DNA from: a virus | Length of the DNA stretch: 29,465 nucleotides | Strand: one strand, 5' to 3' | Virus record (IMG/VR): IMGVR_UViG_3300023281_000789 | Span: 1-29,465 of that record | In this document: one piece after another, positions 1,094 to 29,465 of the stretch | How positions within the stretch are numbered: the first letter of the stretch is position 1 | Layout: every line of letters begins with the position of its first letter | The notes under the pieces: model-generated | Told to the model about the DNA's origin: nothing | Database searches by the model: none | What the model saw: the letters and a program-made list of their open reading frames with translations, nothing else | Position numbers and translations under genes: made by a program

Positions 1094-1111
1094 ATTATAG
1101 TGTGTAGGATT
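1094..1111 (-). promoter_or_regulatory. Class I element AATCCTACACACTATAAT (minus orientation); extended 36-bp copy at 1076-1111
   Basis: The reverse complement of 1076-1111 equals 21014-21049 exactly (36/36). It lies in the gap between the tail gene stop (1056) and the fibre gene start (1157). Confidence 0.6.
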
Positions 1112-11020: not shown

Positions 11021-11368
11021 ATGATACATCCATATTTAGAGTTTAAAGAATCGAAAATTCACCGTAATGGTGTATTTACACAAGGGGATTTAAAGATAGG
11101 GGAAAGAATAGAAAGGAGTTATTATACGGTATTGGATGTTGAATTAGAAAATTTGGATAGTATAACAAAACAGTATGTATTTAGTTATCCAAAACAAGGA
11201 GATAAATTAAGTTTGGTATGGGGGTTTGGTTCAATATATAACCACTCTAACCATCCAAATGTAGATTGGTACTATGATGGTGATGTTATAGTATGGGAAT
11301 GTATAAAAAATATTAATAAGGGTGAGGAATTAACCCACAATTATAAGAATACACAAAGAAAAAGATAG
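11021..11368 (+). CDS. Minimal SET-domain protein (putative lysine methyltransferase)
   Basis: 115 aa. HRNGVFTQGDLKIGERI (GxG/FA + GE block), GFGSIYNHSNHPNV (NHSxxPN) and KGEELTHNY (ELxxxY) occur in SET order and spacing. The architecture is close to the 119-aa PBCV-1 vSET (GFGAIFNHSKDPNA, GEEITISY, as I recall it). I prefer ATG 11021, just after the upstream stop, over the track's TTG 11003. Confidence 0.8.
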   Translation: MIHPYLEFKESKIHRNGVFTQGDLKIGERIERSYYTVLDVELENLDSITKQYVFSYPKQGDKLSLVWGFGSIYNHSNHPNVDWYYDGDVIVWECIKNINKGEELTHNYKNTQRKR

Positions 11369-11370
11369 AT

Positions 11371-12066
11371 ATGCCAGTAAGACATAAAAAAGACGGAGAT
11401 AAGTGTTACGCTCAATGGGGTAACCAACAGAAGTATTATTACCCTTGTGATTCTAAGATATCAAAAGAGAACGCAGAACGTAAAGCGGAGAAACAAGGTA
11501 GAATCATAGAGAGTAGAATTGGTGATAAGTATTCCAATGATACTTGTTGTACCGTAGATGAACATAAAGATTTGGTTGTTAATTATCTGGAAGAAAATGA
11601 TGTATGTATTAGTTTTGAGGAATTAGGTATTTCAGAAGAAGATGTATATAATTCAGAATACTTCTCAGAAGTCACTGAACAAGATATTGTAGACTTTGAG
11701 AAATTTGGTAAGGAAAACTTTAAACTGATTAAATTATATAGATACGTCTCTAATAAATATGGTTCGTCTAATATCGGACCTAACACTCGTCCATTCTGTA
11801 GAACACTCGCTTTGAGAACTTCCGCAGCGATGATGACGTGGGAATCCATAACCTATATGAATGGTATGAATCCTGGATTTGGTAAAGGTGGAGGAGACAG
11901 TTATTCGGTTTTCAATTATAGAGGTGGCAAGAATTGTGTTCATAAATGGGTTAAATATTTATACGACCCTCAAACAAATAATTTGGTTAAGGATGTCAAA
12001 CAACCCAATCAACAGACAGATTCTAATGGTGGAGTACCGGGAGCACCTAAACCTAAAAAACAATAA
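11371..12066 (+). CDS. MuF-like minor head / head-morphogenesis protein (candidate)
   Basis: The C-terminal half, GPNTRPFCRTLALRT...YRGGKNCVHKW, resembles the D.rtR..C..L.G ... H.nCrC signature of SPP1 gp7/Mu F domains. It lies in the portal neighbourhood. Confidence 0.4.
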   Translation: MPVRHKKDGDKCYAQWGNQQKYYYPCDSKISKENAERKAEKQGRIIESRIGDKYSNDTCCTVDEHKDLVVNYLEENDVCISFEELGISEEDVYNSEYFSEVTEQDIVDFEKFGKENFKLIKLYRYVSNKYGSSNIGPNTRPFCRTLALRTSAAMMTWESITYMNGMNPGFGKGGGDSYSVFNYRGGKNCVHKWVKYLYDPQTNNLVKDVKQPNQQTDSNGGVPGAPKPKKQ

Positions 12067-13541: not shown

Positions 13542-13615
13542 TGGAAGAGTTCACTAGATTTTTGGTATTCATAGGGATTCTGTTAATCATATTGATGTTC
13601 AGAAGAAAGGATTAG
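13541..13615 (+). CDS. 24-aa single-pass membrane peptide (below the ORF-track cutoff)
   Basis: Its ATG overlaps the upstream stop (TAATG). It encodes MEEFTRFLVFIGILLIILMFRRKD, a hydrophobic core with a basic tail. Its stop overlaps the stop of the convergent gene 13612-14604. Confidence 0.4.
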   Translation: MEEFTRFLVFIGILLIILMFRRKD

Positions 13616-14604
13616 TATTCTAATTTGAATTCTATATCAGTTGTCATCTTAACAATATTGAGAACTCTCTCTAAATCTGACTCTTTAAAGATAACTGAGT
13701 CGTGCATTGGTAGGAAGTCGATACTATTCATTCTTAACATCTGATATATGTCAGTCATTAATTTCGTCTCACACAACTGATAAATGTAATGAACCATCTT
13801 ATACCCATACTTCTCTTTAAAAGTCCTTAGAGAACTCCAAAAGTTACTTACATCCATATCTCTTAGTTGTTGTCTTTGGTGACAGAATACTTGTTTGAGT
13901 AATTCTTCTTTATTTAAACCAAATTCCCTCTCCATTTGTCCATAGAAATCGTTATATAAATCAATATCATAATTTCTTGATATACCTTCAATCTTATTTT
14001 TTGATAATAACTGGAATATAGAGAATTTAATATCTAATGATTTAGTTCTCTCACCACCAATCTTTAATCTTCTTCTATCATTCTTAGACATTTGTGAATA
14101 AGGGCCGTAGTATCTACCTCTTTTGTATTTGATATCAGTACCAATAGACTCACCATCCAAAGTAGTTCTACTTAGAGTTTCTTCAATCATCTCTGTTAAC
14201 CATTGGTATTCATCTTTTGTTTTAATTTTATTATATAATGAATTAAGATATCTATTTTCTTGTAATGTTTTACTCATCTTACTATCAGATACAGTCTTAT
14301 CAATCTCAAAAATGTTTGGTGAAGACACATATTGTTGTGTACCATCTTCAAATCTAATTTTGATAGTAGAGGATTGTTTTTTCATTTTAATGAATCCATC
14401 ATCTAATAAAACGTTTGTGAAGTCTTTGGCTTTATCTGTAAACGCTAACCTTAGAACTCTTTGAGATACTTTACCCTTCATCTTTGTAATTAGGTAAGAA
14501 TACGTTTCTAATACTTGTTCGTAATTGATACGAGGTGATTTGATTGGTTCACCTGTTTTAGAAAGGTAGGTGTGTCCTTTTAGTTTTTCAATAGTTTTTT
14601 CCAT
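13612..14604 (-). CDS. Only minus-strand gene: replication/transcription-initiation candidate with polymerase-like motifs
   Basis: 330 aa. KRGRYYGP (aa 161-168), LDIKFSIFQLLS (190-201) and FLPMHDSVIF (297-306) occur in the order of the T/DxxGR, A and C motifs of Pol A / T7-like polymerases. It is divergent from the early operon across a region holding two class I elements. Coding is confident; function is not. Confidence 0.75.
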   Translation of the reverse strand: MEKTIEKLKGHTYLSKTGEPIKSPRINYEQVLETYSYLITKMKGKVSQRVLRLAFTDKAKDFTNVLLDDGFIKMKKQSSTIKIRFEDGTQQYVSSPNIFEIDKTVSDSKMSKTLQENRYLNSLYNKIKTKDEYQWLTEMIEETLSRTTLDGESIGTDIKYKRGRYYGPYSQMSKNDRRRLKIGGERTKSLDIKFSIFQLLSKNKIEGISRNYDIDLYNDFYGQMEREFGLNKEELLKQVFCHQRQQLRDMDVSNFWSSLRTFKEKYGYKMVHYIYQLCETKLMTDIYQMLRMNSIDFLPMHDSVIFKESDLERVLNIVKMTTDIEFKLEY

Positions 14605-14700
14605 TTTGTTTGTATTTTAAATTATGTTATATTAATAAATATACAGTAATTTTCAAAAGTTGTCAATATTATAAAAAAAGTTTTATTTTTTTTTGATTAG

Positions 14701-14718
14701 AATCCTACACACTATAAT
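14701..14718 (+). promoter_or_regulatory. Class I element AATCCTACACACTATAAT (plus orientation, faces the early operon)
   Basis: Exact 18-mer shared with 21014-21031, 25220-25237 and rc(1094-1111). Confidence 0.65.
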
Positions 14719-14778
14719 AGTAAGTAAGTACAAATACATAATAATATATATAAATTATATTATTGTTTCTATCCCTTC

Positions 14779-14796
14779 ATTATAATGTGTAGGAAA
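14779..14796 (-). promoter_or_regulatory. Class I element variant TTTCCTACACATTATAAT (minus orientation, faces gene 13612-14604)
   Basis: 15/18 match to the core. The downstream leader, GAAGGGATAGAAACAATAAT, parallels GAATAGGTAGAAACATAAAT after the 21014 copy. Confidence 0.55.
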
Positions 14797-14979: not shown

Positions 14980-15137
14980 GAAAGGATACCAATATCATTA
15001 AATTCACACTGATATCTAAAAAGATTATTCCCAGTGACAAAGAATATATCAAATTGATAGAGGATGAATTAGAGACATTGAAGATGAACTTCGAAAAAAT
15101 AACAAAAGATTTAAATGAGATGAGAGGAAAAATATGA
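14949..15137 (+). CDS. Hypothetical small protein, ATGA-coupled to the sigma-like gene
   Basis: 62-aa charged helical ORF. Its stop overlaps ATG 15134 (ATGA). It overlaps the upstream ORF by 31 nt, so the start is uncertain. Confidence 0.4.
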   Translation: MGQSKRQEELRKDTNIIKFTLISKKIIPSDKEYIKLIEDELETLKMNFEKITKDLNEMRGKI

Positions 15138-15850
15138 GAGATGAAGAACTATTAGGACATATCAAAGAAAGAATAACAAAGAATCCTTACTACTACCAAA
15201 TAAAAGATGAGACAGATAGACAAACTATCATCAACGATTTATTTATTAATGTATGGGAAAAGATTCAAAAAGGTGAGATGATACCTAAGTGGGAAGAAAT
15301 AAAGGGTTATGTATTTATATCTGGAAGAAATAATTGTTTAAAGTATCTAAGAGATAAACAAAGACATACCAATACGTCCGTAGACATAGATATAAGTGAT
15401 TCTAACAACTTTAGATACGATGATGGTACAGATACTATGGAATACTTCAATAGACAAGAGGAGATGTTAGAATTCTTAAATAATAATATTGACGAAGGTA
15501 TAGATAAAGTATTATTTGATTTAAGAAGAGAAGGTATGACTCTACCAGAGATATCAGAATACCTCAATATGGACTTATATCAATTGGAAAAGATTAACCG
15601 TACTGTTATAAGATATCTAAGAAGCAGATGGTTTTATCCAGATTGGAAGAATAGAAAAGGTAAATGGGGTGATGGTAATGATTTTTTCTATAGAGTTTTT
15701 GATACATATAAGAATACGGAAAAAGATTATACTGTAAAAGCAAGAATATGTGAAGATATAGATATCAAACAGAACTCTATTAATAACCATATAGGCAACG
15801 GTAAACTAATAAAAGGAAGATATTATGTAAAAATTATAAAAAAAAAGTAA
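15134..15850 (+). CDS. Sigma-70/ECF-like factor with a C-terminal NUMOD1-like extension
   Basis: Region-2-like DLFINVWEKIQ...GYVFISGRNNCLKYLRDKQRH. Region-4-like VLFDLRREGMTLPEISEYLNMDLYQLEKINRTVIRYLRS. The extra ~70 aa, YRVFD...YTVKARICEDIDIKQNSINNHIGNGKLIKGRYYVK, resemble NUMOD1/IENR1 HTH modules of homing endonucleases. Confidence 0.6.
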   Translation: MRDEELLGHIKERITKNPYYYQIKDETDRQTIINDLFINVWEKIQKGEMIPKWEEIKGYVFISGRNNCLKYLRDKQRHTNTSVDIDISDSNNFRYDDGTDTMEYFNRQEEMLEFLNNNIDEGIDKVLFDLRREGMTLPEISEYLNMDLYQLEKINRTVIRYLRSRWFYPDWKNRKGKWGDGNDFFYRVFDTYKNTEKDYTVKARICEDIDIKQNSINNHIGNGKLIKGRYYVKIIKKK

Positions 15851-16034: not shown

Positions 16035-16496
16035 ATGGGTACAACATTTAAAGAGTACGAAACAAGAGAAAGAAAATTTATGGATTGGTACATCAATATG
16101 AAACCAGAACATAAAATGGAAGAAGAGTCAGAGATTGGTTCATTCAAAAGAAATGATTTTATAATGATGAGTGGTAACTCATACGTAATGGGAGAAGTAA
16201 AGGTAAGAACATTCGACCACGATAAGTATCCAACCGCAGTTATAGAGTTAGATAAGGTGAACGCACTGATGGAACTATTCCAACCATATAATCAAATGGG
16301 TAAAGACGTTAACAAATTATATTACTACGCAGCGTATCCGATGAGTCGTAAAGTCCTAATATTTGACATTATAAAGACTCCTACGACACTTTCATACGAA
16401 TGGTGTCCTATCGCTACCGCTGGACCGAATAGAGGTAGTAAATGGAAAGCGATGGTAAACTATAAAATTGAAGACGCTATAGTATTAGAATATTAA
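16035..16496 (+). CDS. PD-(D/E)xK-like nuclease (candidate)
   Basis: 153 aa. An N-terminal acidic helix, then NDFIMMSG...VMGEVKVRT, gives a D...(E)xK arrangement typical of the restriction-endonuclease fold. Confidence 0.4.
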   Translation: MGTTFKEYETRERKFMDWYINMKPEHKMEEESEIGSFKRNDFIMMSGNSYVMGEVKVRTFDHDKYPTAVIELDKVNALMELFQPYNQMGKDVNKLYYYAAYPMSRKVLIFDIIKTPTTLSYEWCPIATAGPNRGSKWKAMVNYKIEDAIVLEY

Positions 16497-17283: not shown

Positions 17284-17838
17284 ATGGAATTAACTATAGA
17301 AAAGAGAGAAGTGAAAATAAACGACATACTTAAAGAGATTACAACGGAGGGTACCATATGGGATGAGATTATTGAGAATATAATACATCCCAATTCTCAT
17401 TTAAAACCAGAACTAATAAGTGAGATATCATTAGGATACTTAGAAAATAAAGAAAAGATAGAGGGAGTATGGGAAAAAGGATATTTCAAATATTACTTCA
17501 TTAAGACGGTTACAAACCAAATAAGGAGTAAGACATCCAGTTTTCATAAAAACATCCGTATAACTGATTATAGTACCTTTGACGATGGTGTAGACATTAT
17601 GGATGAAAGTAATAATGATGATATACTACAGAAGATAGAAAAAGAACATAAATTAGGTACAATAAAACATATACTAAATAGATTACCAATCAGCTGGTTT
17701 GAACATCAGATGTTTAATGAGTATTATTTCAACAATAGAACATATAGGAATATAGAGGAAGAATATAGTTTAGACCACGTATTAGTATGGAAAACAGTAA
17801 AGAAGGTAAGGGAGATGGTAATAAATGAATTAAAATAA
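17284..17838 (+). CDS. Second sigma-70/ECF-like factor
   Basis: Region-2-like GYFKYYFIKTVTNQIRSKTSSFHKNIR. Region-4-like LPISWFEHQMFNEYYFNNRTYRNIEEEYSLDHVLVWKTVKKVREMV. Confidence 0.5.
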   Translation: MELTIEKREVKINDILKEITTEGTIWDEIIENIIHPNSHLKPELISEISLGYLENKEKIEGVWEKGYFKYYFIKTVTNQIRSKTSSFHKNIRITDYSTFDDGVDIMDESNNDDILQKIEKEHKLGTIKHILNRLPISWFEHQMFNEYYFNNRTYRNIEEEYSLDHVLVWKTVKKVREMVINELK

Positions 17839-19844: not shown

Positions 19845-21015
19845 ATTCGTCTATACAACCGCTATAGATAAAATCAGAGATTTAAGTAAGAGAAAAAAAA
19901 TTATACAAGGAGGAACATCCGCTGGTAAAACTTTCGGTATTCTCCCCATTCTCATAGACAGAGCCATCAAAGAACCAAACTTAGAGATAAGTATAGTATC
20001 AGAGAGTGTCCCTCACCTCCGTAGAGGATGTCTCAAAGACTTTCTAAAGATAATGGAACTAACCCATAGGTTTAACTCAGAAGACTTTAATAAGACACAT
20101 TTAAAATATAAATTTCATAATGGGAGTTATATAGAATTTTTTAGTGTTGATGATGAATCCAAACTCAGAGGGGCGAGAAGAAATATTCTCTATATCAATG
20201 AAGCGAACAATGTATCCTATGAAGCGTACCTACAATTATCTATTCGTACCAACAAAGATATCTATATCGATTTCAACCCTACCCATAGATTTTGGGCACA
20301 CAATGAAGTATTAAAGGAAGAGGATTCAGAGTTACTCATTCTTACCTATTTGGATAATGAGGCGTTAGACCCTCAGATAGTTAAACAATTAGAGATAAAC
20401 AGAGATAAAGGTATTACATCAAATTATTGGTACAACTGGTGGAAAGTTTATGGTGAAGGTTCTATCGGGACTTTAGAGGGCGTCATCTTTGATGATTGGA
20501 ATGAGGTAGATAAGATACCTATGGACGCTAAACTAATTTGTTATGGAATGGATTTTGGGTTTACCAACGACCCCAGTTCCCTTATTGGTTTGTATAAGTA
20601 TAACGATGAATTAATTATCGATGAGGTATTCTATAGGAAAGGGTTGTTAAACTCCGACATATCGAATATAATGAAGTCTGAGGGGATTGTAGGAGAAGTG
20701 TTCGCTGATAGTAGTGAACCTAAATCTATACAAGAGTTAAAAAGGTACGGACATAATGTTAAACCTGTAACCAAAGGTAAGGATAGTATTATCTTTGGAA
20801 TTAATATCTTACAACAATACCCCCTTAAGATAACTAAACGTTCTGTAAATCTTAAAGATGAATTAACCAAATATAACTGGAAGAAAGATAAAGAGGGTAA
20901 TACACTTAATGTTCCAATCGATTCACACAATCACGCTATTGACGCTATGAGGTATGGAGCGATGATGAAGTTAGGTAAGAGAACCACAGGTACACGTCCA
21001 TTTAGAATTGGATAA
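19819..21015 (+). CDS. terL: Terminase large subunit (PBSX/Terminase_3-like)
   Basis: Walker A-like IQGGTSAGKTFGILP, Walker B-like ILYINEAN, and a C-terminal nuclease block MDFGFTNDPSS ... DSHNHAIDAMRY. An alternative start is at ATG 19828. Confidence 0.9.
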   Translation: MIRMEEQNKFVYTTAIDKIRDLSKRKKIIQGGTSAGKTFGILPILIDRAIKEPNLEISIVSESVPHLRRGCLKDFLKIMELTHRFNSEDFNKTHLKYKFHNGSYIEFFSVDDESKLRGARRNILYINEANNVSYEAYLQLSIRTNKDIYIDFNPTHRFWAHNEVLKEEDSELLILTYLDNEALDPQIVKQLEINRDKGITSNYWYNWWKVYGEGSIGTLEGVIFDDWNEVDKIPMDAKLICYGMDFGFTNDPSSLIGLYKYNDELIIDEVFYRKGLLNSDISNIMKSEGIVGEVFADSSEPKSIQELKRYGHNVKPVTKGKDSIIFGINILQQYPLKITKRSVNLKDELTKYNWKKDKEGNTLNVPIDSHNHAIDAMRYGAMMKLGKRTTGTRPFRIG

Positions 21016-21031
21016 TCCTACACACTATAAT
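21014..21031 (+). promoter_or_regulatory. Class I element AATCCTACACACTATAAT (plus orientation); extended 36-bp copy at 21014-21049
   Basis: Starts inside the TerL stop codon. It lies 64 nt upstream of ATG 21096. Confidence 0.65.
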
Positions 21032-22889: not shown

Positions 22890-25220
22890 ATGAATGTAAT
22901 CACACAACCTTCAGAACATATGGGAGCGTATTCAGCGATACCCCTAAGAGTATTCGATACAGACGCTGAGTTATCGGACAATTATAAATACATCATTAAC
23001 ATCCTTTGGGATAAGGTTGAATTCAGTGGAACCTCATCCGCTAATATAAATGGTATAGTATTAACGTCCCTACTCACAACCACCCCTCATAGTTTCACTA
23101 AGGGTGATACAGTATTTGTTAATGATATAGATAATGGTGATGAACACACCAATTATTATATCGTCAGAAGTATTATAGATGAGTATACGATAGTATTAGA
23201 TATATTATGGGAAATACCCTACGGACCTAATTTAGAATCTACTGTGAGTAGAGTTATAAAATATAAATTAAACCCAGATTTAGAGAATGAATGTAAATTG
23301 GATTTATCAAATACATTAAAAGATTTTGTATCACAGAACTTAGATGATACCATTTCTGATTTACCCTTCTTAGGGGACACCACAAGATTTGATTATGATT
23401 TATCAATAGGTAGTGAATCACAATATGTATTACGATTTGAAGATAATAGATTTGAGGGTGGTAATGTAGGTTTCTTAACAGAGTCATTTACAGGTGTTAC
23501 AGACACACCATTCCAAATAGGAGACCAAATACAAGTATCACAAGATATAGAGGAGTGGCCTTACACAGATAATTTCTTCTTTGGTGGTAACATAGGTTTC
23601 ACAGGTACTACTAATCATAACTTCTTAAGTGGACAAACGATACAAGTGGTAGGACAGGTTACCAACCCACAATATAATGGATTTACAACAATAGTTGATG
23701 TACCTACTTCAGACTCATTAGTAACGAGTGTAGGATTTGGATTTAGTTCACCAGTGGAAGGGGGTAGTATATATGGTACAAGTCGTCCTTCTTATAATGG
23801 TGTATCAACGATTATAGATATTGTTACCGCTACAACTGGAGTTATATTGGTTGTAGATAAACCATTTACTACCGCTAGTGGTGAGATAGGTGGTTCGATT
23901 CGTTTCGCTGATGGTAGGATAACCCCTATATTTAATGAAGCGTCTATATCAGATTTAAAGTGTTATAACGCACATATAAACAGATTAGATTATACAGTAG
24001 ATTCTTTTGAACCATATTACATAGACCCAGTTGATTGTACAGGTTCTACTTTTGATAATAAGATATCTACATTCTTAACACATAACAACCCTTCACAGAA
24101 ATATAGAATAGAACCTTCTACAAAATCATTCCTATTGACTCACACAGACACAGGGAGTACTTCTAATGGATTAGGATTTGATTTCTATAATAGTAATAAC
24201 GAACTCTTAGGAAAGGTGTCACAACAAAGTATTTTCTATGAGGATATGTATTCACCAATTGGATTAGAACAACTCGCTACGAACATAGGTAGTTACATTC
24301 AACTTAGTGGTGTAACATCAGACCCCTTTACAAGTTATAGTGGTAGTGTTGATAATTACTCAGTATATCTGTCATCCGATTGTGGTGACTGTTGTGAGTG
24401 TGATATCTACTTCGATGCGTATTACAAAGATTTAACAACAGAGTTAGAAATACTCTATACCAAACAGAGTGGTACTTTAGGAGGTTATAATTACTTTTAT
24501 GGGACTTTAAGTGGGGGAACGATAGAAACACAACTATGGTATATAGATGATATCACACCCGCACCCGATAGAGGATGGTATTTAACAGAAAGAGGTGTAA
24601 CAGAATTTTCAGCGGTAACTCAGTTCTACGCTTACGATAAAGCCAATGACACATTCTGTCCTGTATTAACTGATACCCAACAAGAGTGGGCAGCACCAGT
24701 AAGTTCAATAATCGGATTAAATATAAATCAAGGTTTTACATTTATCTTAGATAGTGTAAGAGCGATATCAGAAAAAGTATGGTTTGAAATCAATGATGAT
24801 TGTTCTGATTATGAAGTATATCATTTGATGTGGAAGGACAGATATGGTAGTTGGTTAAGTTACCCCTTCATTTATTGGAGTAAGGACTTTACAGAGGTTG
24901 AGAGAAGTACCTATTACAAAACTGAGGGTAATTGGAATGATGATACATATGGTTACGACCCTTATGGTAGAGGTGAGACTCAATACTTTGGTAGAAGTAG
25001 AGATAAGGTAACAATCAATAGTGGATGGGTTAAAGATTATGAGAATGATTTGATTAAAGATTTATTAGAATCGACATCAGTATATTTACAAGACCCAGAA
25101 GGTAGACTATTGGCTTGTATATTAGAAGAAAAATCATTAGAGTTCAAAAAGAACAACCAAATAATGATATACAATTATACAATGTCAGTACGATTAAGTA
25201 ACAATGAAGTAAGATTCTAA
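22890..25220 (+). CDS. Large virion tail/baseplate protein
   Basis: 776-aa ORF in the tail block, G/T/S/N-rich, with Cys cluster DCGDCCECD. No enzymatic motif recognised. Confidence 0.6.
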   Translation: MNVITQPSEHMGAYSAIPLRVFDTDAELSDNYKYIINILWDKVEFSGTSSANINGIVLTSLLTTTPHSFTKGDTVFVNDIDNGDEHTNYYIVRSIIDEYTIVLDILWEIPYGPNLESTVSRVIKYKLNPDLENECKLDLSNTLKDFVSQNLDDTISDLPFLGDTTRFDYDLSIGSESQYVLRFEDNRFEGGNVGFLTESFTGVTDTPFQIGDQIQVSQDIEEWPYTDNFFFGGNIGFTGTTNHNFLSGQTIQVVGQVTNPQYNGFTTIVDVPTSDSLVTSVGFGFSSPVEGGSIYGTSRPSYNGVSTIIDIVTATTGVILVVDKPFTTASGEIGGSIRFADGRITPIFNEASISDLKCYNAHINRLDYTVDSFEPYYIDPVDCTGSTFDNKISTFLTHNNPSQKYRIEPSTKSFLLTHTDTGSTSNGLGFDFYNSNNELLGKVSQQSIFYEDMYSPIGLEQLATNIGSYIQLSGVTSDPFTSYSGSVDNYSVYLSSDCGDCCECDIYFDAYYKDLTTELEILYTKQSGTLGGYNYFYGTLSGGTIETQLWYIDDITPAPDRGWYLTERGVTEFSAVTQFYAYDKANDTFCPVLTDTQQEWAAPVSSIIGLNINQGFTFILDSVRAISEKVWFEINDDCSDYEVYHLMWKDRYGSWLSYPFIYWSKDFTEVERSTYYKTEGNWNDDTYGYDPYGRGETQYFGRSRDKVTINSGWVKDYENDLIKDLLESTSVYLQDPEGRLLACILEEKSLEFKKNNQIMIYNYTMSVRLSNNEVRF

Positions 25221-25237
25221 ATCCTACACACTATAAT
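25220..25237 (+). promoter_or_regulatory. Class I element AATCCTACACACTATAAT (plus orientation)
   Basis: Begins at the last base of the stop codon of 22890-25220. It lies 45 nt upstream of ATG 25283 and is followed by GAATAGGATAAT, as in the 21014 copy. Confidence 0.65.
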
Positions 25238-27427: not shown

Positions 27428-29465
27428 ATGAATAAGTATATTATAGAAGCCAACGGAAAACCCTTAGATACCTTTGATGATTTTAATATATCCTTAAACT
27501 ATCAAATTGAGGATATTATGGATATCACCAAAAGGAAGACTAACTTTTCTAAAACGATAGAATTACCAGGTACAAAGAATAATAATCTATTCTTCCAACA
27601 GATATTTGATGTCAACATTGACAATATAAACTTCAACCCCAATATAAGGATACCAGCCAACATCAGAATAGGGGATAATGATATTCTGAATGGTAACCTT
27701 CAATTGATAAATATAATCTCTGAGAACGAAGATGTTAGATATGAGGTTGTGGTAGCGGGTACACTTAAAGATATTATAAATACATTTCAAGATTATTATA
27801 TTTCTGATTTGGATTATAGTGAATACAATCACGAAAGAAATCGACAGAACATTATAGATAGTTGGACTCATTTATTACAGATAAATGGATTAGAACAACA
27901 AACAGAAATTGGTAAGGGTTATGTATACCCTTATATAGTTACAGGTGGTAATGATGATATCACTGATAATTGGTACGTCTATGACGCTTATCCAGCGGTG
28001 TACGTTAAAGACATTATGGATAGGATATTTAGGTTCTCAGACTTCACCTATACGTCTGATTTCTTAGACTCAGATTATTTTAAAAGTTTGATTATACCCT
28101 TTTCAGAAAATAAACTACAAATTAATAAGGAAGAACAGGAAGAGAGAAAGGTATTTGTTGGTGTAGATGGTTCATTACCAGAATTTGATGGTGGTAGTAC
28201 AGGTAGTGGGTATAGTGATTTATTTGGTAATAAAGTAATTCTGTGGGGACAACCTTGGTTTTACAATAATTCTCTTAATTATAGATTCAGACTTAATAGA
28301 GATAGTGGTACTGTAGGTGATATTGAATTTCAAGATTTATCAGACCAATGGGATGAATTGGCTTTCACATCTCAGAATCAAGGTTATTACGATGTTAGTT
28401 TGGACGCTCAGTTGGTACCTAAATGGTTCTCACAACAAGGACAAGATATAAGATGGAAAGGTGATGGTAATGTAGAGTATATATATTATCTCTTAAAGGT
28501 ACCAGCGAATGGTTCTCCATCATCAATAATAGATAGTTCACAAGGTGACTACGACCCAGCGAATGGAGTATATCCTACACAACTATATCAACCCTCAAAT
28601 TCAATTGATAACTCGTCACCTTGGTATGATACTGACGCCAATTTAAATATTGGTTTATCAGCGGAGAATCTATGGATGGAAGAAGGTGATAGACTTGTGG
28701 TTAGATTTGGTGTACGTTGGCCTGATGATGTCAGATGGGATATTGATGGGATTATTACAGGACAAAATGAGAAAATGAGGTTACGTATGACGTTAGCGGA
28801 GTCTGTTAATGGTACCCCTACCAAATTAGAAGTTACTACGGCGTCTAACACATCCTATGGTAATGAAGATATCAATATAAATCAGATTGTACCTAAGATA
28901 AAGATGAAAGATTTCTTTATGAATATTACAAAGATGTTTAACCTCATCATACAAGACAATCCAAACGTACCAAACGATTTGATTATTGAACCGAGGGATG
29001 ATTTCTTTAACAGTCGTAATAAGGTAAAAGATTGGACACAGATATTAGATAACGATTCAGAGATTAAAATCACTCCTATGAGTGAATTGGACGCTAATAC
29101 ATATAGATATAAATACAAAAAAGATACTGATTTCTTCAATGAGAAGTATTTGAGTGAGACTGGAAAGGAATATGGTGAAGTTAAGATAGATGTAATTAAC
29201 GATTTCTCTGAAAAAACTGTAAAGAATGAGTTGATATTCTCCCCTACACCAAATTCAGAGTTGTTTATTAAGGATAGAGTGGCTCCGTTTTTTGTAGATA
29301 TACAGAATCAGAACAATTTATCACCAAAGAAAGTCAATCATAGGATACTTTTCTATAGTGGTTTATTGGATTGTGAGACATTTACACTCGCTGATGATGA
29401 GAATACTACCACAGAGTTGACAACGTTGACTCAATACCCTTATTGTGGTATGTATAATTCTCCTT
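27428..29465 (+). CDS. 5' part of the wrap-around ~1012-aa tail/baseplate-fibre protein (continues at 1..1056)
   Basis: I translated the frame from ATG 27428 to the window end by hand and found no stop. It is absent from the ORF track only because it has no stop inside the window. The N-terminus (NISLNYQIEDIMDITKRKTNFSKTIELPGTKNN) is reminiscent of distal-tail/baseplate proteins. Confidence 0.8.
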   Translation, partial: MNKYIIEANGKPLDTFDDFNISLNYQIEDIMDITKRKTNFSKTIELPGTKNNNLFFQQIFDVNIDNINFNPNIRIPANIRIGDNDILNGNLQLINIISENEDVRYEVVVAGTLKDIINTFQDYYISDLDYSEYNHERNRQNIIDSWTHLLQINGLEQQTEIGKGYVYPYIVTGGNDDITDNWYVYDAYPAVYVKDIMDRIFRFSDFTYTSDFLDSDYFKSLIIPFSENKLQINKEEQEERKVFVGVDGSLPEFDGGSTGSGYSDLFGNKVILWGQPWFYNNSLNYRFRLNRDSGTVGDIEFQDLSDQWDELAFTSQNQGYYDVSLDAQLVPKWFSQQGQDIRWKGDGNVEYIYYLLKVPANGSPSSIIDSSQGDYDPANGVYPTQLYQPSNSIDNSSPWYDTDANLNIGLSAENLWMEEGDRLVVRFGVRWPDDVRWDIDGIITGQNEKMRLRMTLAESVNGTPTKLEVTTASNTSYGNEDININQIVPKIKMKDFFMNITKMFNLIIQDNPNVPNDLIIEPRDDFFNSRNKVKDWTQILDNDSEIKITPMSELDANTYRYKYKKDTDFFNEKYLSETGKEYGEVKIDVINDFSEKTVKNELIFSPTPNSELFIKDRVAPFFVDIQNQNNLSPKKVNHRILFYSGLLDCETFTLADDENTTTELTTLTQYPYCGMYNSP
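29411..29465. repeat. Terminal direct repeat, copy 2 (identical to 1-55)
   Basis: Exact 55-nt match to the window start. This is typical of an assembler overlap on a circular or circularly permuted molecule. Confidence 0.95.

Follow-up and report, generated by a model that had tools for sequence, protein, structure and literature searches.

divPolA2, described by Yutin et al. (2024, Virol J, PMC11348598), is a divergent polymerase of family A found in barbaviruses as well as in ICP1-like and other phages. The phages that encode it are large (80–140 kb), carry a regular PolB or PolA as well, and show variable gene neighbourhoods around it; it is the presence of their own PolB, together with this variability, that led to the suggestion of a repair role for divPolA2 (PMC11348598). 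We found in the literature no biochemistry for any divPolA2. The TV-Pol family, defined in 2008 by Iyer, Abhiman and Aravind, has a core made of an Arg hairpin, two palm Asp and fingers carrying an Asp and RxxxK, with a thumb of two antiparallel helices (PMC2579912). The TV-Pol group includes a minimal Pol A with an established activity: CCPol-MP of SCCmec, in which CCPol, paired with MP, both primes de novo and polymerises (Bebel et al. 2020, PMC7581432). At the opposite, the inactive RRM-only relatives found in Pol-SSB pairs have lost the catalytic Asp residues (PMC10061031).

The window, i.e. the whole stretch of 29,465 nucleotides analysed here, holds a complete phage genome of 29,410 bp with a circular junction. 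A first, sequence-only reading had singled out in it a sole divergent gene, for a 330-aa protein with polymerase-like motifs. The gene is indeed there (Table 1), no other long minus-strand ORF occurs in the window, and the four motif blocks lie at the residues announced: KRGRYYGPYSQMSKNDRRRL at 161–180, TKSLDIKFSIFQLLS at 187–201, K232-x7-F240, and DFLPMHDSVIF at 296–306. The T7 RNAP blocks used for comparison, with their numbering (421, 535, K631/Y639, 808), match the translation of T7 gene 1. The polymerase-like gene is monocistronic and divergent in the window phage. L213 and L223, which are syntenic with it, likewise have no other long ORF on that strand; in L224 two genes upstream of the polymerase-like gene are oppositely oriented, and in L225 the genes after it run in its own direction.

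Table 1. Coordinates in the window of the polymerase-like gene, of the parts of its product and of the neighbouring features discussed in the text
Feature	Position	Strand	Description
Mini Pol A-type protein gene	13612..14604	-	330 aa, ATG start, stop codon included; ORF list
Winged-helix-like N-domain, residues 28-101	14302..14523	-	Putative DNA-binding or origin-recognition module; AF2 secondary structure
Two helices before Arg hairpin, residues 118-145	14170..14253	-	Putative reduced thumb remnant; AF2 helices 118-125, 134-145
Palm and fingers core, residues 147-330	13615..14166	-	divPolA2-type Pol A superfamily; hhalign, AF2, Foldseek
Arg beta-hairpin, residues 161-180	14065..14124	-	R164 = T/DxxGR equivalent (TGR668), plus R177; strands 159-161, 164-166
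Motif A, residues 187-201	14002..14046	-	Strand 185-192 ends in D191, then helix; I196 = steric gate
D191 codon	14032-14034	-	Aligned to Pol I D705, T7 RNAP D537
D-F-Y, residues 219-221	13942..13950	-	Fingers Asp; Pol I D732-I-H equivalent
Shortened O-helix (motif B), residues 232-240	13885..13911	-	K232 and F240
YQLCETKLM, residues 275-283	13756..13782	-	Pol I Q849 'QGTAADIIK' helix equivalent; Q276, E279
Motif C beta-hairpin, residues 296-306	13687..13719	-	H301-D302 at turn; strands 297-300, 303-307
H301-D302 codons	13699-13704	-	Aligned to Pol I H881-D882
Housekeeping-sigma-type promoter-like site TTGACA-N17-TATATT	14638..14666	-	Predicted; 11/12 consensus; 34 nt upstream of start codon, points into gene
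Inverted face-to-face pair of phage element (T/A)CCTAC-N-CA-Y-TATAAT	14701..14796	14701-14718 +, 14779-14796 -	Upstream of gene
ECF-type sigma factor gene	15134-15850		TIGR02985 E=2e-11
ECF-type sigma factor gene	17284-17838		TIGR02937 E=1e-6

Compared directly with Pfam, PHROGs, NCBIfam and PDB sequences, the 330-aa protein gives nothing significant, PF00476 of Pfam included, and the whole window has no megablast match among GenBank phages. The protein is not an orphan: it has nine homologues at 48–92% identity and 168 distant relatives, and the family to which it belongs was named divPolA2 in phages in 2024 (PMC11348598). A protein search with the core alignment, limited by its word index, returned 6 proteins; searches for related loci in IMG/VR with the close-clade alignment, and for family members on plasmids, found none.

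The family alignment gathers 135 sequences at about 20% identity. D191 and D302, which the sequence-only reading had placed at the two catalytic Asp positions, do align to D705 and D882 of Pol I and are invariant (135/135 each). R164 is kept in 132 sequences, R177 and H301 in 126 each, Y221 in 122, Q276 in 110 and D219 in 99; E279 is found in 126, the nine others having Asp. K232 and F240 are invariant within the 10-member clade of the window protein. F240 aligns to Pol I Y766, where Phe is the majority residue of the family. The O-helix of this clade carries a four-residue deletion with respect to the family consensus RxxxKxxFxxxxFG: K232 sits in the column of R754, yet it stands 8 residues before F240, as K758 does before Y766. 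The deletion removes the canonical R...K spacing, so that dNTP binding may be altered. At the steric-gate position, aligned to E710 of Pol I and to G542 of T7 RNAP, the window protein has I196 and 92 of the 135 relatives have Gln.

The relationship to Pol A is established at the level of profiles. With the window protein as master, the family core matches a Pol A alignment by hhalign over 162 columns (Prob 96.8%, E=2.4e-10). Residues ~160–325 are thereby placed on residues 666–908 of E. coli Pol I with all motifs in register: R164 on R668, D191 on D705, D219 on D732, F240 on Y766, Q276 on Q849 and H301-D302 on H881-D882. A separate local profile run gave P=1.2e-5 against Pol A, reversed and shuffled controls staying at P=0.3–0.9. 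The link runs via the wider family, the window clade by itself giving P=0.21 against the Pol A profile. Both profiles, that of Pol A and that of RNAP, have little depth, because the T7 DNAP and RNAP loci gathered were close relatives only. Besides, tblastn with the core of P0021, a family member, matches bona fide phage Pol A genes (best E 6e-5), and one distant relative matches PF00476 (E=0.005). Against PDB sequences, the family-core HMM found designed helical repeats and an insignificant match to N4 RNAP2 only.

The predicted structure leads in the same direction. An earlier AF2 model, built from 10 close homologues, reached a pLDDT of 68, and its Foldseek search told nothing beyond a hint of polymerases. 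The present model has a pLDDT of 83 and a pTM of 0.74, with values mostly above 90 in residues 147–330, and its best 11 Foldseek matches in the PDB are all family A DNA polymerases, with probabilities of 0.57–0.96 (at least 0.80 for 10 of the 11), E-values from 1.7e-3 to 4e-2, none reaching 1e-3, and TM around 0.3. In BFVD the matches go down to E=2.7e-10 and are phage proteins of ~400–450 aa, among them the barbavirus divPolA2 of Rheinheimera phage Barba31A. The miniaturised right-hand palm enzyme of Pol A / T7-type lineage that had been proposed from the motifs is thus borne out by the profile match, the motif register, the AF2 model and the invariance of the Asp residues. We consider the fold well supported: the 330-aa protein is a pared-down relative of DNA polymerase I that has kept its catalytic residues.

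Ahead of this core, the N-domain has in the AF2 model the topology H-b-H-H-b-b plus an extra hairpin. Foldseek gives for it weak matches to winged-helix domains (JetA cWHD at a probability of 0.75, DnaD-N, ScpB, MarR), and profile comparisons, PDB and Pfam included, reveal no sequence relatives of this domain outside the window clade. Its resemblance, at low confidence, to initiator or DnaD-type DNA-binding modules, the shortening of the O-helix and the fact that no curated family model matches the protein could together be read as the mark of a non-catalytic initiator, of Rep or winged-helix type, whose polymerase motifs would be coincidental or decayed. Such a protein would hardly have kept both metal-binding Asp without exception in 135 sequences that share ~20% identity, and five more motif residues in above 80% of them, nor would its profile and fold be significantly similar to those of active Pol A enzymes; the inactive RRM-only relatives, unlike this family, did lose their Asp residues (PMC10061031). 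Since both Asp are invariant and the Pol A profile matches, we reject the ordinary Rep with coincidental motifs, which the sequence-only reading had kept as its alternative; a non-catalytic initiator of either type now appears hardly credible.

Among the described enzymes, divPolA2 is homologous in its catalytic core. Our family matches it with Prob 99.7% and P=2e-25 (P=7e-9 for the window clade alone), the family HMM scores 49–97 bits on six divPolA2 proteins, and between the predicted structures the E-values run from 1e-7 to 1e-10. Both lack an exonuclease and a canonical thumb while keeping motifs A and C, and motif B in a form that is shortened in the window protein. The window protein is however shorter, 330 aa against ~420–445, and is set apart by its O-helix deletion; divPolA2's N-terminal globular domain is absent, residues 1–150 of the window clade being unrelated to it (P=0.49). 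The genomic settings differ too: unlike the divPolA2 phages, the window phage is small (29.4 kb), has no other DNA polymerase detected and carries the gene beside an AT-rich inverted repeat.

As for the TV-Pols, their motif set (Arg hairpin, two palm Asp, fingers Asp, RxxxK) is present at the level of the family, the RxxxK spacing being altered in the window protein, and both groups are at home in viruses and integrative elements. The family HMM also gives a weak match to gp030 of Ma-LMM01 (19 bits, E=5e-6), the sole match in 50 kb, a protein presumed to be a TV-Pol because it adjoins transposases. TV-Pols however reach 400–600 aa and have a real thumb, where the window protein has two short helices (118–125 and 134–145). 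These helices occupy the position of the Pol A thumb, and in the model residues 118–145 may represent a strongly reduced remnant of it; the alignment to a subfamily from Bacteroidota integrative elements, discussed below, reaches back to residue 132. CCPol, for its part, retains three exonuclease helices, depends on the OB-fold protein MP and has a helicase after it; nothing of the kind was recognised in the window phage. With the canonical family A enzymes (Klenow fragment of E. coli Pol I, Taq, T7 gp5, the apicoplast polymerase), which are the top PDB matches, the window protein shares the motif order and register, but its polymerase domain has ~180 residues instead of ~400. It has no 3'-5' exonuclease, almost no thumb and a shortened O-helix, Gln or Ile replaces the steric-gate Glu, and Ser replaces the Glu that follows HD.

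The comparison with T7-type RNAPs is less favourable than had been supposed. The superfamily is the same, D191 corresponds to D537, motif C reads HDS in both and the K-x7-aromatic spacing is that of K631-Y639. However, the window protein has neither Gly at the G542 position (I196) nor Tyr at the Y639 position (F240), is about a third of the size, and the promoter-recognition and promoter-opening modules are absent. The T7 RNAP profile does align motif A correctly, for a match over 36 columns with Prob 1.3% and P=0.041. Of the proposed affinity to Pol A and T7-type polymerases, the Pol A part therefore stands, in a divPolA2/TV-Pol-like form, while a specific affinity to T7 RNAP is not supported (P=0.04 over 36 columns).

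The idea of a T7-like enzyme also drew on the promoters. The genome carries phage-specific elements of 16–18 nt, the CCTACACACTATAAT or CCTACNCAYTATAAT elements, which end in a perfect TATAAT; four copies are identical, a conserved -35 is lacking, and they are located at operon starts. The gene had been described as flanked by them. It does not have them on both sides: two inverted copies stand together upstream of it, and the other three copies are elsewhere in the genome. The inverted pair sits in the most AT-rich of the intergenic regions (180 nt, 16% G+C). L213, L223 and L224 have such a pair upstream of the gene too, the starts of the two copies being 55–106 nt apart; for the second copy of L225, a match is obtained only at the limit of 3 mismatches. 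The gene itself is preceded by a promoter-like site of housekeeping type (Table 1). By eye, in unaligned sequences, a similar TTGAC...TATATT site is found at the same gene of L224, and weaker ones in L223 (TTGACT..TACTTA), L213 (TTTAAA..TATATT) and L225 (TAGAC..GATATT).

From these elements one may build a minimal single-subunit RNAP: made by the host RNAP, it would transcribe the phage from the CCTACACACTATAAT elements, as the T7, SP6 and N4 RNAPs do from their own promoters. Promoter cores of SP6 and T7 contain ACACTATA, and so do the phage elements, which are moreover short, identical in four copies, without a conserved -35 and placed at operon starts. The separate sigma-70-like promoter of the gene, with its comparable but weaker counterparts in the relatives, would fit this scheme, as would S303, which makes motif C 'HDS' as in T7 RNAP, and the alignment of motif A by the T7 RNAP profile. 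The protein would then be the smallest known promoter-specific, DNA-dependent RNAP, its winged-helix N-domain reading the CCTACACACTATAAT elements and its mini Pol A core transcribing the phage, which we judge quite improbable; in a variant, the promoter-specific transcript would prime replication at the inverted pair beside the gene. If true, this would mean a T7-like strategy squeezed to about a third of its size. The weight of the profiles is nevertheless on the other side, P=0.04 over 36 columns for T7 RNAP against E=2.4e-10 for Pol A. The steric gate is Ile or Gln, not Gly, and the Y639 position has Phe; a Phe at Y639 of T7 RNAP relaxes rNTP selection. We see in 330 aa no counterpart of a promoter-specificity loop or an N-terminal promoter-opening domain. 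Finally, the element ends in a perfect TATAAT, and two genes for ECF-type sigma factors give the phage a conventional means of reading promoters of its own; these factors can account for the 'T7-like' elements. The bulky steric gate and the two sigma genes thus weaken the minimal RNAP, which we regard as improbable. In the contigs L224 and L225, both partial, no copy of the first sigma-like gene (15134–15850) was detected; the second (17284–17838) has a counterpart in L225, a divergent relative.

The inverted pair itself could represent divergent promoters and/or a candidate initiator binding site or origin. Since the elements also stand at operon starts, they serve, in part at least, as promoters and not as initiator sites. 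GC skew tracks the coding strand of the genome, so that it is uninformative and points to no origin.

The other early observation, the lack of any further polymerase, primase or helicase in the genome, was upheld by Pfam, PHROGs and NCBIfam searches. The only Walker A motif is that of the terminase, and sequence searches of the gene neighbours give no signal of an OB-fold (MP-like) protein or a helicase. A helicase hidden in the junction-spanning ORF was considered and set aside: this ORF is without Walker A and structural-looking, with a long Asn/Ser/Thr/Gly-rich C-terminal part, and its 349-aa C-terminal part (7–1056), the portion covered by the searches, has no Pfam or PHROGs match.

What could a thumb-less polymerase do in such a phage? 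One answer is an auxiliary DNA polymerase for gap filling, lesion bypass or recombination-dependent synthesis, initiation being left to the host or to an unrecognised phage protein. The protein does belong to the superfamily of divPolA2, for which a repair role has been proposed (PMC11348598), and its bulky steric gate favours dNTPs. Conserved early ORFs without assigned function, e.g. 16035–16496, could hide an initiator; compared with the PDB, this ORF and 17284–17838 returned nothing. On the other hand, a thumb-less and non-processive repair enzyme would be of little use to a 29-kb phage devoid of any other replication gene, and the gene is kept in all five related phages examined, always beside the AT-rich inverted-repeat region. 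A dedicated N-domain that looks sequence-specific suits targeting more than general repair, and the relatives in integrative elements occupy a primase slot next to a helicase. We therefore hold the auxiliary polymerase to be unlikely, though it deserves to be weighed.

These relatives form a ~400-aa subfamily of Bacteroidota integrative elements, related to the window clade at P=4e-18. Their gene lies directly downstream of a same-strand gene of ~320–550 aa, in a conserved operon. The most frequent Pfam families among the neighbours pooled over 25 loci are AAA_25 (14 ORFs), HTH_17 (11), Phage_integrase (8) and DUF5906 (7); D5_N (2) and DnaB_C (2) also occur, the helicase being explicitly assigned to the upstream ORF in L168 only. 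The position of the subfamily looks like the slot usually held by a primase. These relatives adjoin D5-like/AAA_25 helicases and integrases as TV-Pols do, whereas the window phage is without such linkage to a D5-like helicase or to an integrase, resolvase or transposase.

Our best reading, drawn from context and analogy, is that of a primer synthase for replication initiation, one of the options of the sequence-only reading. The protein is probably the replication-starting enzyme of the phage. More precisely, we would give about even chances to a two-part enzyme, in which the N-domain and the mini Pol A core together would act as an origin-proximal initiator primase-polymerase. The host RNAP would read the gene early from its own housekeeping-type promoter, and the N-domain would then direct the protein to DNA at, or close to, the divergent intergenic region, rich in AT, beside the gene. 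There the Pol A core, by two-metal chemistry at D191 and D302, would start and briefly extend a primer, from deoxynucleotides as the bulky steric-gate residue suggests. As the phage has no helicase, clamp or replicative polymerase of its own, the host replisome would presumably take over. In this scheme the catalytic activity, the priming, the preference for one sugar, the DNA target and the hand-over to the host are all predicted features.

ColE2 Rep, the prim-pol ORF904 of pRN1 and P4 alpha are origin-specific initiator-primases with the palm of an archaeo-eukaryotic primase (AEP). They likewise are small proteins in which a DNA-targeting domain goes with a primer-making palm, and their genes lie beside the presumed site of action, in a replicon that for the rest depends on the replication proteins of its host. 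The analogy is functional only: their palm is AEP, not Pol A, and neither sequence nor fold relates them to the window protein, whose function would be that of a ColE2-Rep, prim-pol or CCPol-MP initiator-primase, with Pol A supplying the palm.

An initiator primase-polymerase is favoured by two observations, namely that no replication-type enzyme other than this protein was recognised in the genome and that its gene abuts the AT-rich inverted-repeat region; by analogy, the primase-like slot of the Bacteroidota subfamily and the CCPol precedent (PMC7581432) point to the same role. Against it, the O-helix is deleted by four residues, the gene has beside it no MP-like partner or helicase, unlike CCPol and the Bacteroidota elements, the inverted elements recur at operon starts, and the plasmid search gave no family member. 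Moreover the coexistence of divPolA2 with PolB, in variable neighbourhoods of large phages, indicates that not every member of the family acts as an initiator (PMC11348598).

The divPolA2 superfamily was already known; what is distinct here is the smaller size, the unrelated N-domain and the four-residue deletion of the O-helix. If active, the protein would be among the smallest family A cores seen, ~180 residues of palm and fingers with essentially no thumb, and would help to define the minimal needs of this ancient enzyme class. A compact, single-chain and possibly sequence-targeted primase-polymerase could also serve as a tool enzyme. An active protein would moreover be the first divPolA2-type enzyme to stand as the sole replication-type protein of a small tailed phage, and it would carry the CCPol-MP precedent of a Pol A-based primase beyond staphylococcal islands, to phages and Bacteroidota. 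A function, origin-proximal priming, would thus be suggested for a family present in hundreds of phages, ICP1 and barbaviruses included, and in many Bacteroidota integrative elements.

The window represents one complete phage genome, assembled as a circle: positions 1-55 and 29411-29465 are identical (a 55-nt end overlap), which leaves 29,410 bp of unique sequence, and the gene set includes portal, terminase, holin, XkdF-like protease and tail genes. The 330-aa protein is the product of the only long minus-strand ORF, the gene that the sequence-only reading had called the sole divergent one. The four peptide blocks quoted in that reading lie at exactly the residues indicated, and the blocks of T7 RNAP that it set beside them agree, numbering included, with the real T7 gene 1 product. 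It had also stated that the genome has no other polymerase, primase or helicase, and this holds within the reach of Pfam, PHROGs and NCBIfam: helicase, primase, SSB and second polymerase are all undetectable in the genome. Only the terminase carries a Walker A motif; the large ORF across the circular junction, whose sequence looks like that of a tail/baseplate-like structural protein, has none, and its 349-aa C-terminal part gave no Pfam or PHROGs match. Tail-to-tail with the polymerase gene lies a Cys-rich ORF, kept in the syntenic related phage contigs L213 and L223, whose product may bind zinc. Beside the portal module of L213, a 117-aa product (11030-11383) gives a Pfam SET-domain match; the window has an ORF at a similar place, a correspondence by position alone.

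Features of the window and their positions
Feature	Position	Strand	Remarks
Mini Pol A-type gene, 330 aa	13612-14604	-	ATG start; ORF listing
Junction-spanning ORF, 1012 aa	27428 -> 1056, across circular junction		linear listing gives only a 349-aa fragment, 7-1056
AATCCTACACACTATAAT copy	1094-1111	-	
AATCCTACACACTATAAT copy	14701-14718	+	
AATCCTACACACTATAAT copy	14779-14796	-	
AATCCTACACACTATAAT copy	21014-21031	+	
AATCCTACACACTATAAT copy	25220-25237	+	
ECF-type sigma gene 1	15134-15850	+	TIGR02985 'Sig70_bacteroi1' E=2e-11; TIGR02937 E=1e-9; phrog_1740 E=5e-7
ECF-type sigma gene 2	17284-17838	+	TIGR02937 E=1e-6
Early protein gene, 153 aa	16035-16496	+	no family detectable
DruA-like protein gene, 370 aa	17844-18956	+	Pfam DruA (Druantia defence protein A) E=5e-11; phrog_19197 E=3e-86
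Cys-rich ORF, 72 aa	13323-13541	+	C-x16-C-x2-C-x2-C
ORF, 121 aa	11003-11368		place similar to SET-domain gene of L213

The 330-aa protein finds no match in curated family libraries or among PDB sequences. Its nine close homologues (48-92% identity), all from metagenomic contigs, keep invariant G163-R164-Y-Y, K174, R177, D191, K232 and F240, and each of them long enough to reach H301 and D302 has both. Profile searching among 1.84 billion representative proteins brought 168 relatives, of 200-600 aa, which have in common only the unit of residues ~158-320. In a 135-sequence alignment of this module (~20% identity), D191 and D302 are present in 135/135 sequences, R164 in 132, R177, E279 and H301 in 126 each, Y221 in 122, Q276 in 110 and D219 in 99, with the consensus GR...R...D....QP.LL...D.Y...RxxxKxxFxxxxFG...LQxxE..M...FL.VHD.IIVK. 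The three residues D191, H301 and D302 on which the sequence-only reading relied are therefore conserved among homologues and, judged from the sequences, the polymerase-like motifs are not due to chance. One further member of the family is a gene of Pinkberry virus LS07-2018-MD00 (OP947160.1, 19.6 kb; 1695-2762), scoring 188 bits with the family HMM and 45% identical to the core of the member P0021; its annotation as 'DNA methyltransferase' looks wrong.

Four independent lines, i.e. tblastn, profile-profile comparison, structure prediction and fold search, agree in pointing to a relationship with family A DNA polymerases. P0021 is linked with the window profile (E=2.6e-11), and a plain tblastn search with its core reaches E-values as low as 6e-5 against annotated family A enzymes of Pelagibacter, Erwinia, Klebsiella and Vibrio phages, the matched stretch covering the region of the GR hairpin, motif A and the O-helix. 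For the profile-profile comparison, real Pol A sequences (E. coli Pol I, T7 gp5, T7-like enzymes and four further phage Pol As) were aligned and set against the family core, whose master sequence was the window protein: the local run gave P=1.2e-5, and hhalign on a fresh alignment matched 162 columns at Prob 96.8% and E=2.4e-10. Reversed or column-shuffled control templates gave P=0.3-0.9. The register to Pol I pairs R164 with R668, D191 with D705, I196 with E710, D219 with D732, F240 with Y766, Q276 with Q849 and H301-D302 with H881-D882. The AF2 model built on a deep alignment (pLDDT 83, pTM 0.74, residues 140-330 mostly >90) places R164 on a hairpin, D191 at the end of a strand followed by a helix, a helical fingers insert, and H301-D302 at a hairpin turn before a helix and a strand; the predicted core is an RRM-type palm with inserted fingers. 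When this model was searched against the PDB with Foldseek, the best 11 matches were all family A DNA polymerases (among them the apicoplast Pol, Bst and Taq fragments and Pol nu; T7 DNAP ranks 19), at probabilities of 0.57-0.96, at least 0.80 in 10 of the 11. The E-values, all >=1.7e-3, and TM of ~0.3 are modest, as one would expect of a protein one third as large. Predicted viral structures match strongly, with E down to 2.7e-10, the hits being ~400-450-aa phage proteins of which several are labelled DNA polymerase. We thus hold the assignment to the Pol A fold and superfamily with high confidence.

Among the BFVD matches are proteins of Aeromonas phage 4L372D and Rheinheimera phage Barba31A. 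Homologues of the former occur in 290 phage records, among which are ICP1 and 115 barbaviruses; they make up what Yutin et al. 2024 call 'divPolA2' and describe as having an active palm and a novel N-terminal domain without the canonical thumb, its function being unknown, with a repair DNAP or an RNAP suggested (PMC11348598). The divPolA2 alignment meets the family core at Prob 99.7% and P=2e-25, and the window clade (the protein and its close homologues) alone at P=7e-9; six divPolA2 proteins score 49-97 bits with the family HMM. The same motif set defines the older TV-Pol concept: a two-helix thumb, an Arg hairpin, two palm Asp, and fingers with Asp and RxxxK (PMC2579912). CCPol, the biochemically characterised TV-Pol, synthesises DNA primers de novo in complex with MP, an OB-fold protein (PMC7581432, PMC10061031). 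Ma-LMM01 gp030, a presumed TV-Pol beside transposases, is the sole family-HMM match in 50 kb, but at only 19 bits, which leaves the family a candidate for TV-Pol membership. By contrast, the specific affinity to T7 RNAP put forward from sequence was not borne out: the T7-type RNAP profile reaches only P=0.04 over 36 columns, yet on the correct motif A. The proposal of a miniaturised palm enzyme of the Pol A/T7 lineage with catalytic D191 and D302, probably a primer synthase, largely stands, stripped of this T7-RNAP flavour.

At 330 aa, the protein is shorter than divPolA2 (~430 aa) and TV-Pol (400-600 aa), and gives a new and more compact architecture to a family that the literature has noticed, though never assayed. 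No relationship links its residues 1-150 to the N-region of divPolA2, of Pol A or of the Bacteroidota subfamily discussed below, and neither PDB nor Pfam yields a relative. Their predicted topology (helix 28-41, strand 45-47, helix 48-68, then two hairpins) and weak fold matches to JetA cWHD, DnaD-N, ScpB and MarR suggest a winged helix; two short helices at 118-145 occupy the expected thumb position. Four residues are missing from the O-helix of the window clade, and K232 aligns in the Arg column of RxxxK, but lies 8 residues before F240. As this K-x7-aromatic spacing is that of Pol I K758/Y766 and T7 RNAP K631/Y639, the earlier proposal of an O-helix remnant at K232-x7-F240 is reasonable in helical register. 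At the steric-gate position (Pol I E710, T7 RNAP G542) this protein has Ile and 92/135 relatives have Gln, and the Y766/Y639 equivalent is Phe; from what is established about these positions, the residues suggest an enzyme that uses dNTPs rather than an RNAP, although this is not decisive.

The 18-mer AATCCTACACACTATAAT occurs in four exact copies and one with three mismatches, against 0.15 expected. This phage-specific element of 16-18 nt ends in a perfect TATAAT, lacks a conserved -35, and is kept in related phages with small changes; in two of the copies the shared sequence extends for another 16 nt downstream (GAAGAAGAAGAATAGG). Copies stand at operon starts, and four of the five are directed into downstream genes, the one at 1094 opposing the surrounding plus-strand genes. 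A phage polymerase might in principle read such elements, and the protein could then be a minimal RNAP. The genome, however, encodes two ECF-type sigma factors, probable readers of the elements, and since these explain the elements conventionally we consider a minimal RNAP very improbable. The first has its nearest match in TIGR02985, the Bacteroidetes-type subfamily, the second also occurs in the divergent relative L225, and these factors suggest a Bacteroidota host. The DruA-like gene, found in L213 (82% identity) and absent from L223, is accessory. The early protein is 85-88% identical in related phages, against 63-69% for the polymerase, and is also found in L225 (45%), a candidate partner or replication factor.

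A subfamily of ~400 aa, linked to the window clade at P=4e-18, is common in Bacteroidota genomes, where an integrative element widespread in genomes and MAGs (L168-L206) carries such a gene. The conserved operon runs from a ~95-aa ORF through a same-strand ORF of ~320-550 aa to the polymerase-like gene and a small ORF. The commonest Pfam domains among neighbours of 25 loci are AAA_25 (14), HTH_17 (11), Phage_integrase (8) and DUF5906 (7), followed by 2 each for D5_N and DnaB_C; these counts pool all neighbours, a helicase being assigned to the upstream ORF explicitly in L168 only. It looks as if the polymerase-like gene takes the place of the usual primase. In the five related phages inspected, a very AT-rich intergenic region (16% G+C in the window) adjoins the gene. 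It contains a face-to-face inverted pair of (T/A)CCTAC-N-CA-Y-TATAAT in the window, L213, L223 and the related contig L224, whereas the second copy in L225 is recognised only if the scan allows its maximum of 3 mismatches. A site that resembles a housekeeping-type promoter, TTGACA-N17-TATATT, is directed into the gene; comparable sites are readable in relatives, weaker in L213, L223 and L225. Genome content, the apparent primase slot in Bacteroidota, this gene neighbourhood and the precedent of CCPol lead us to favour, at even odds or slightly less, an initiator primase-polymerase, which would start synthesis near its own gene and then hand over to the host replisome.
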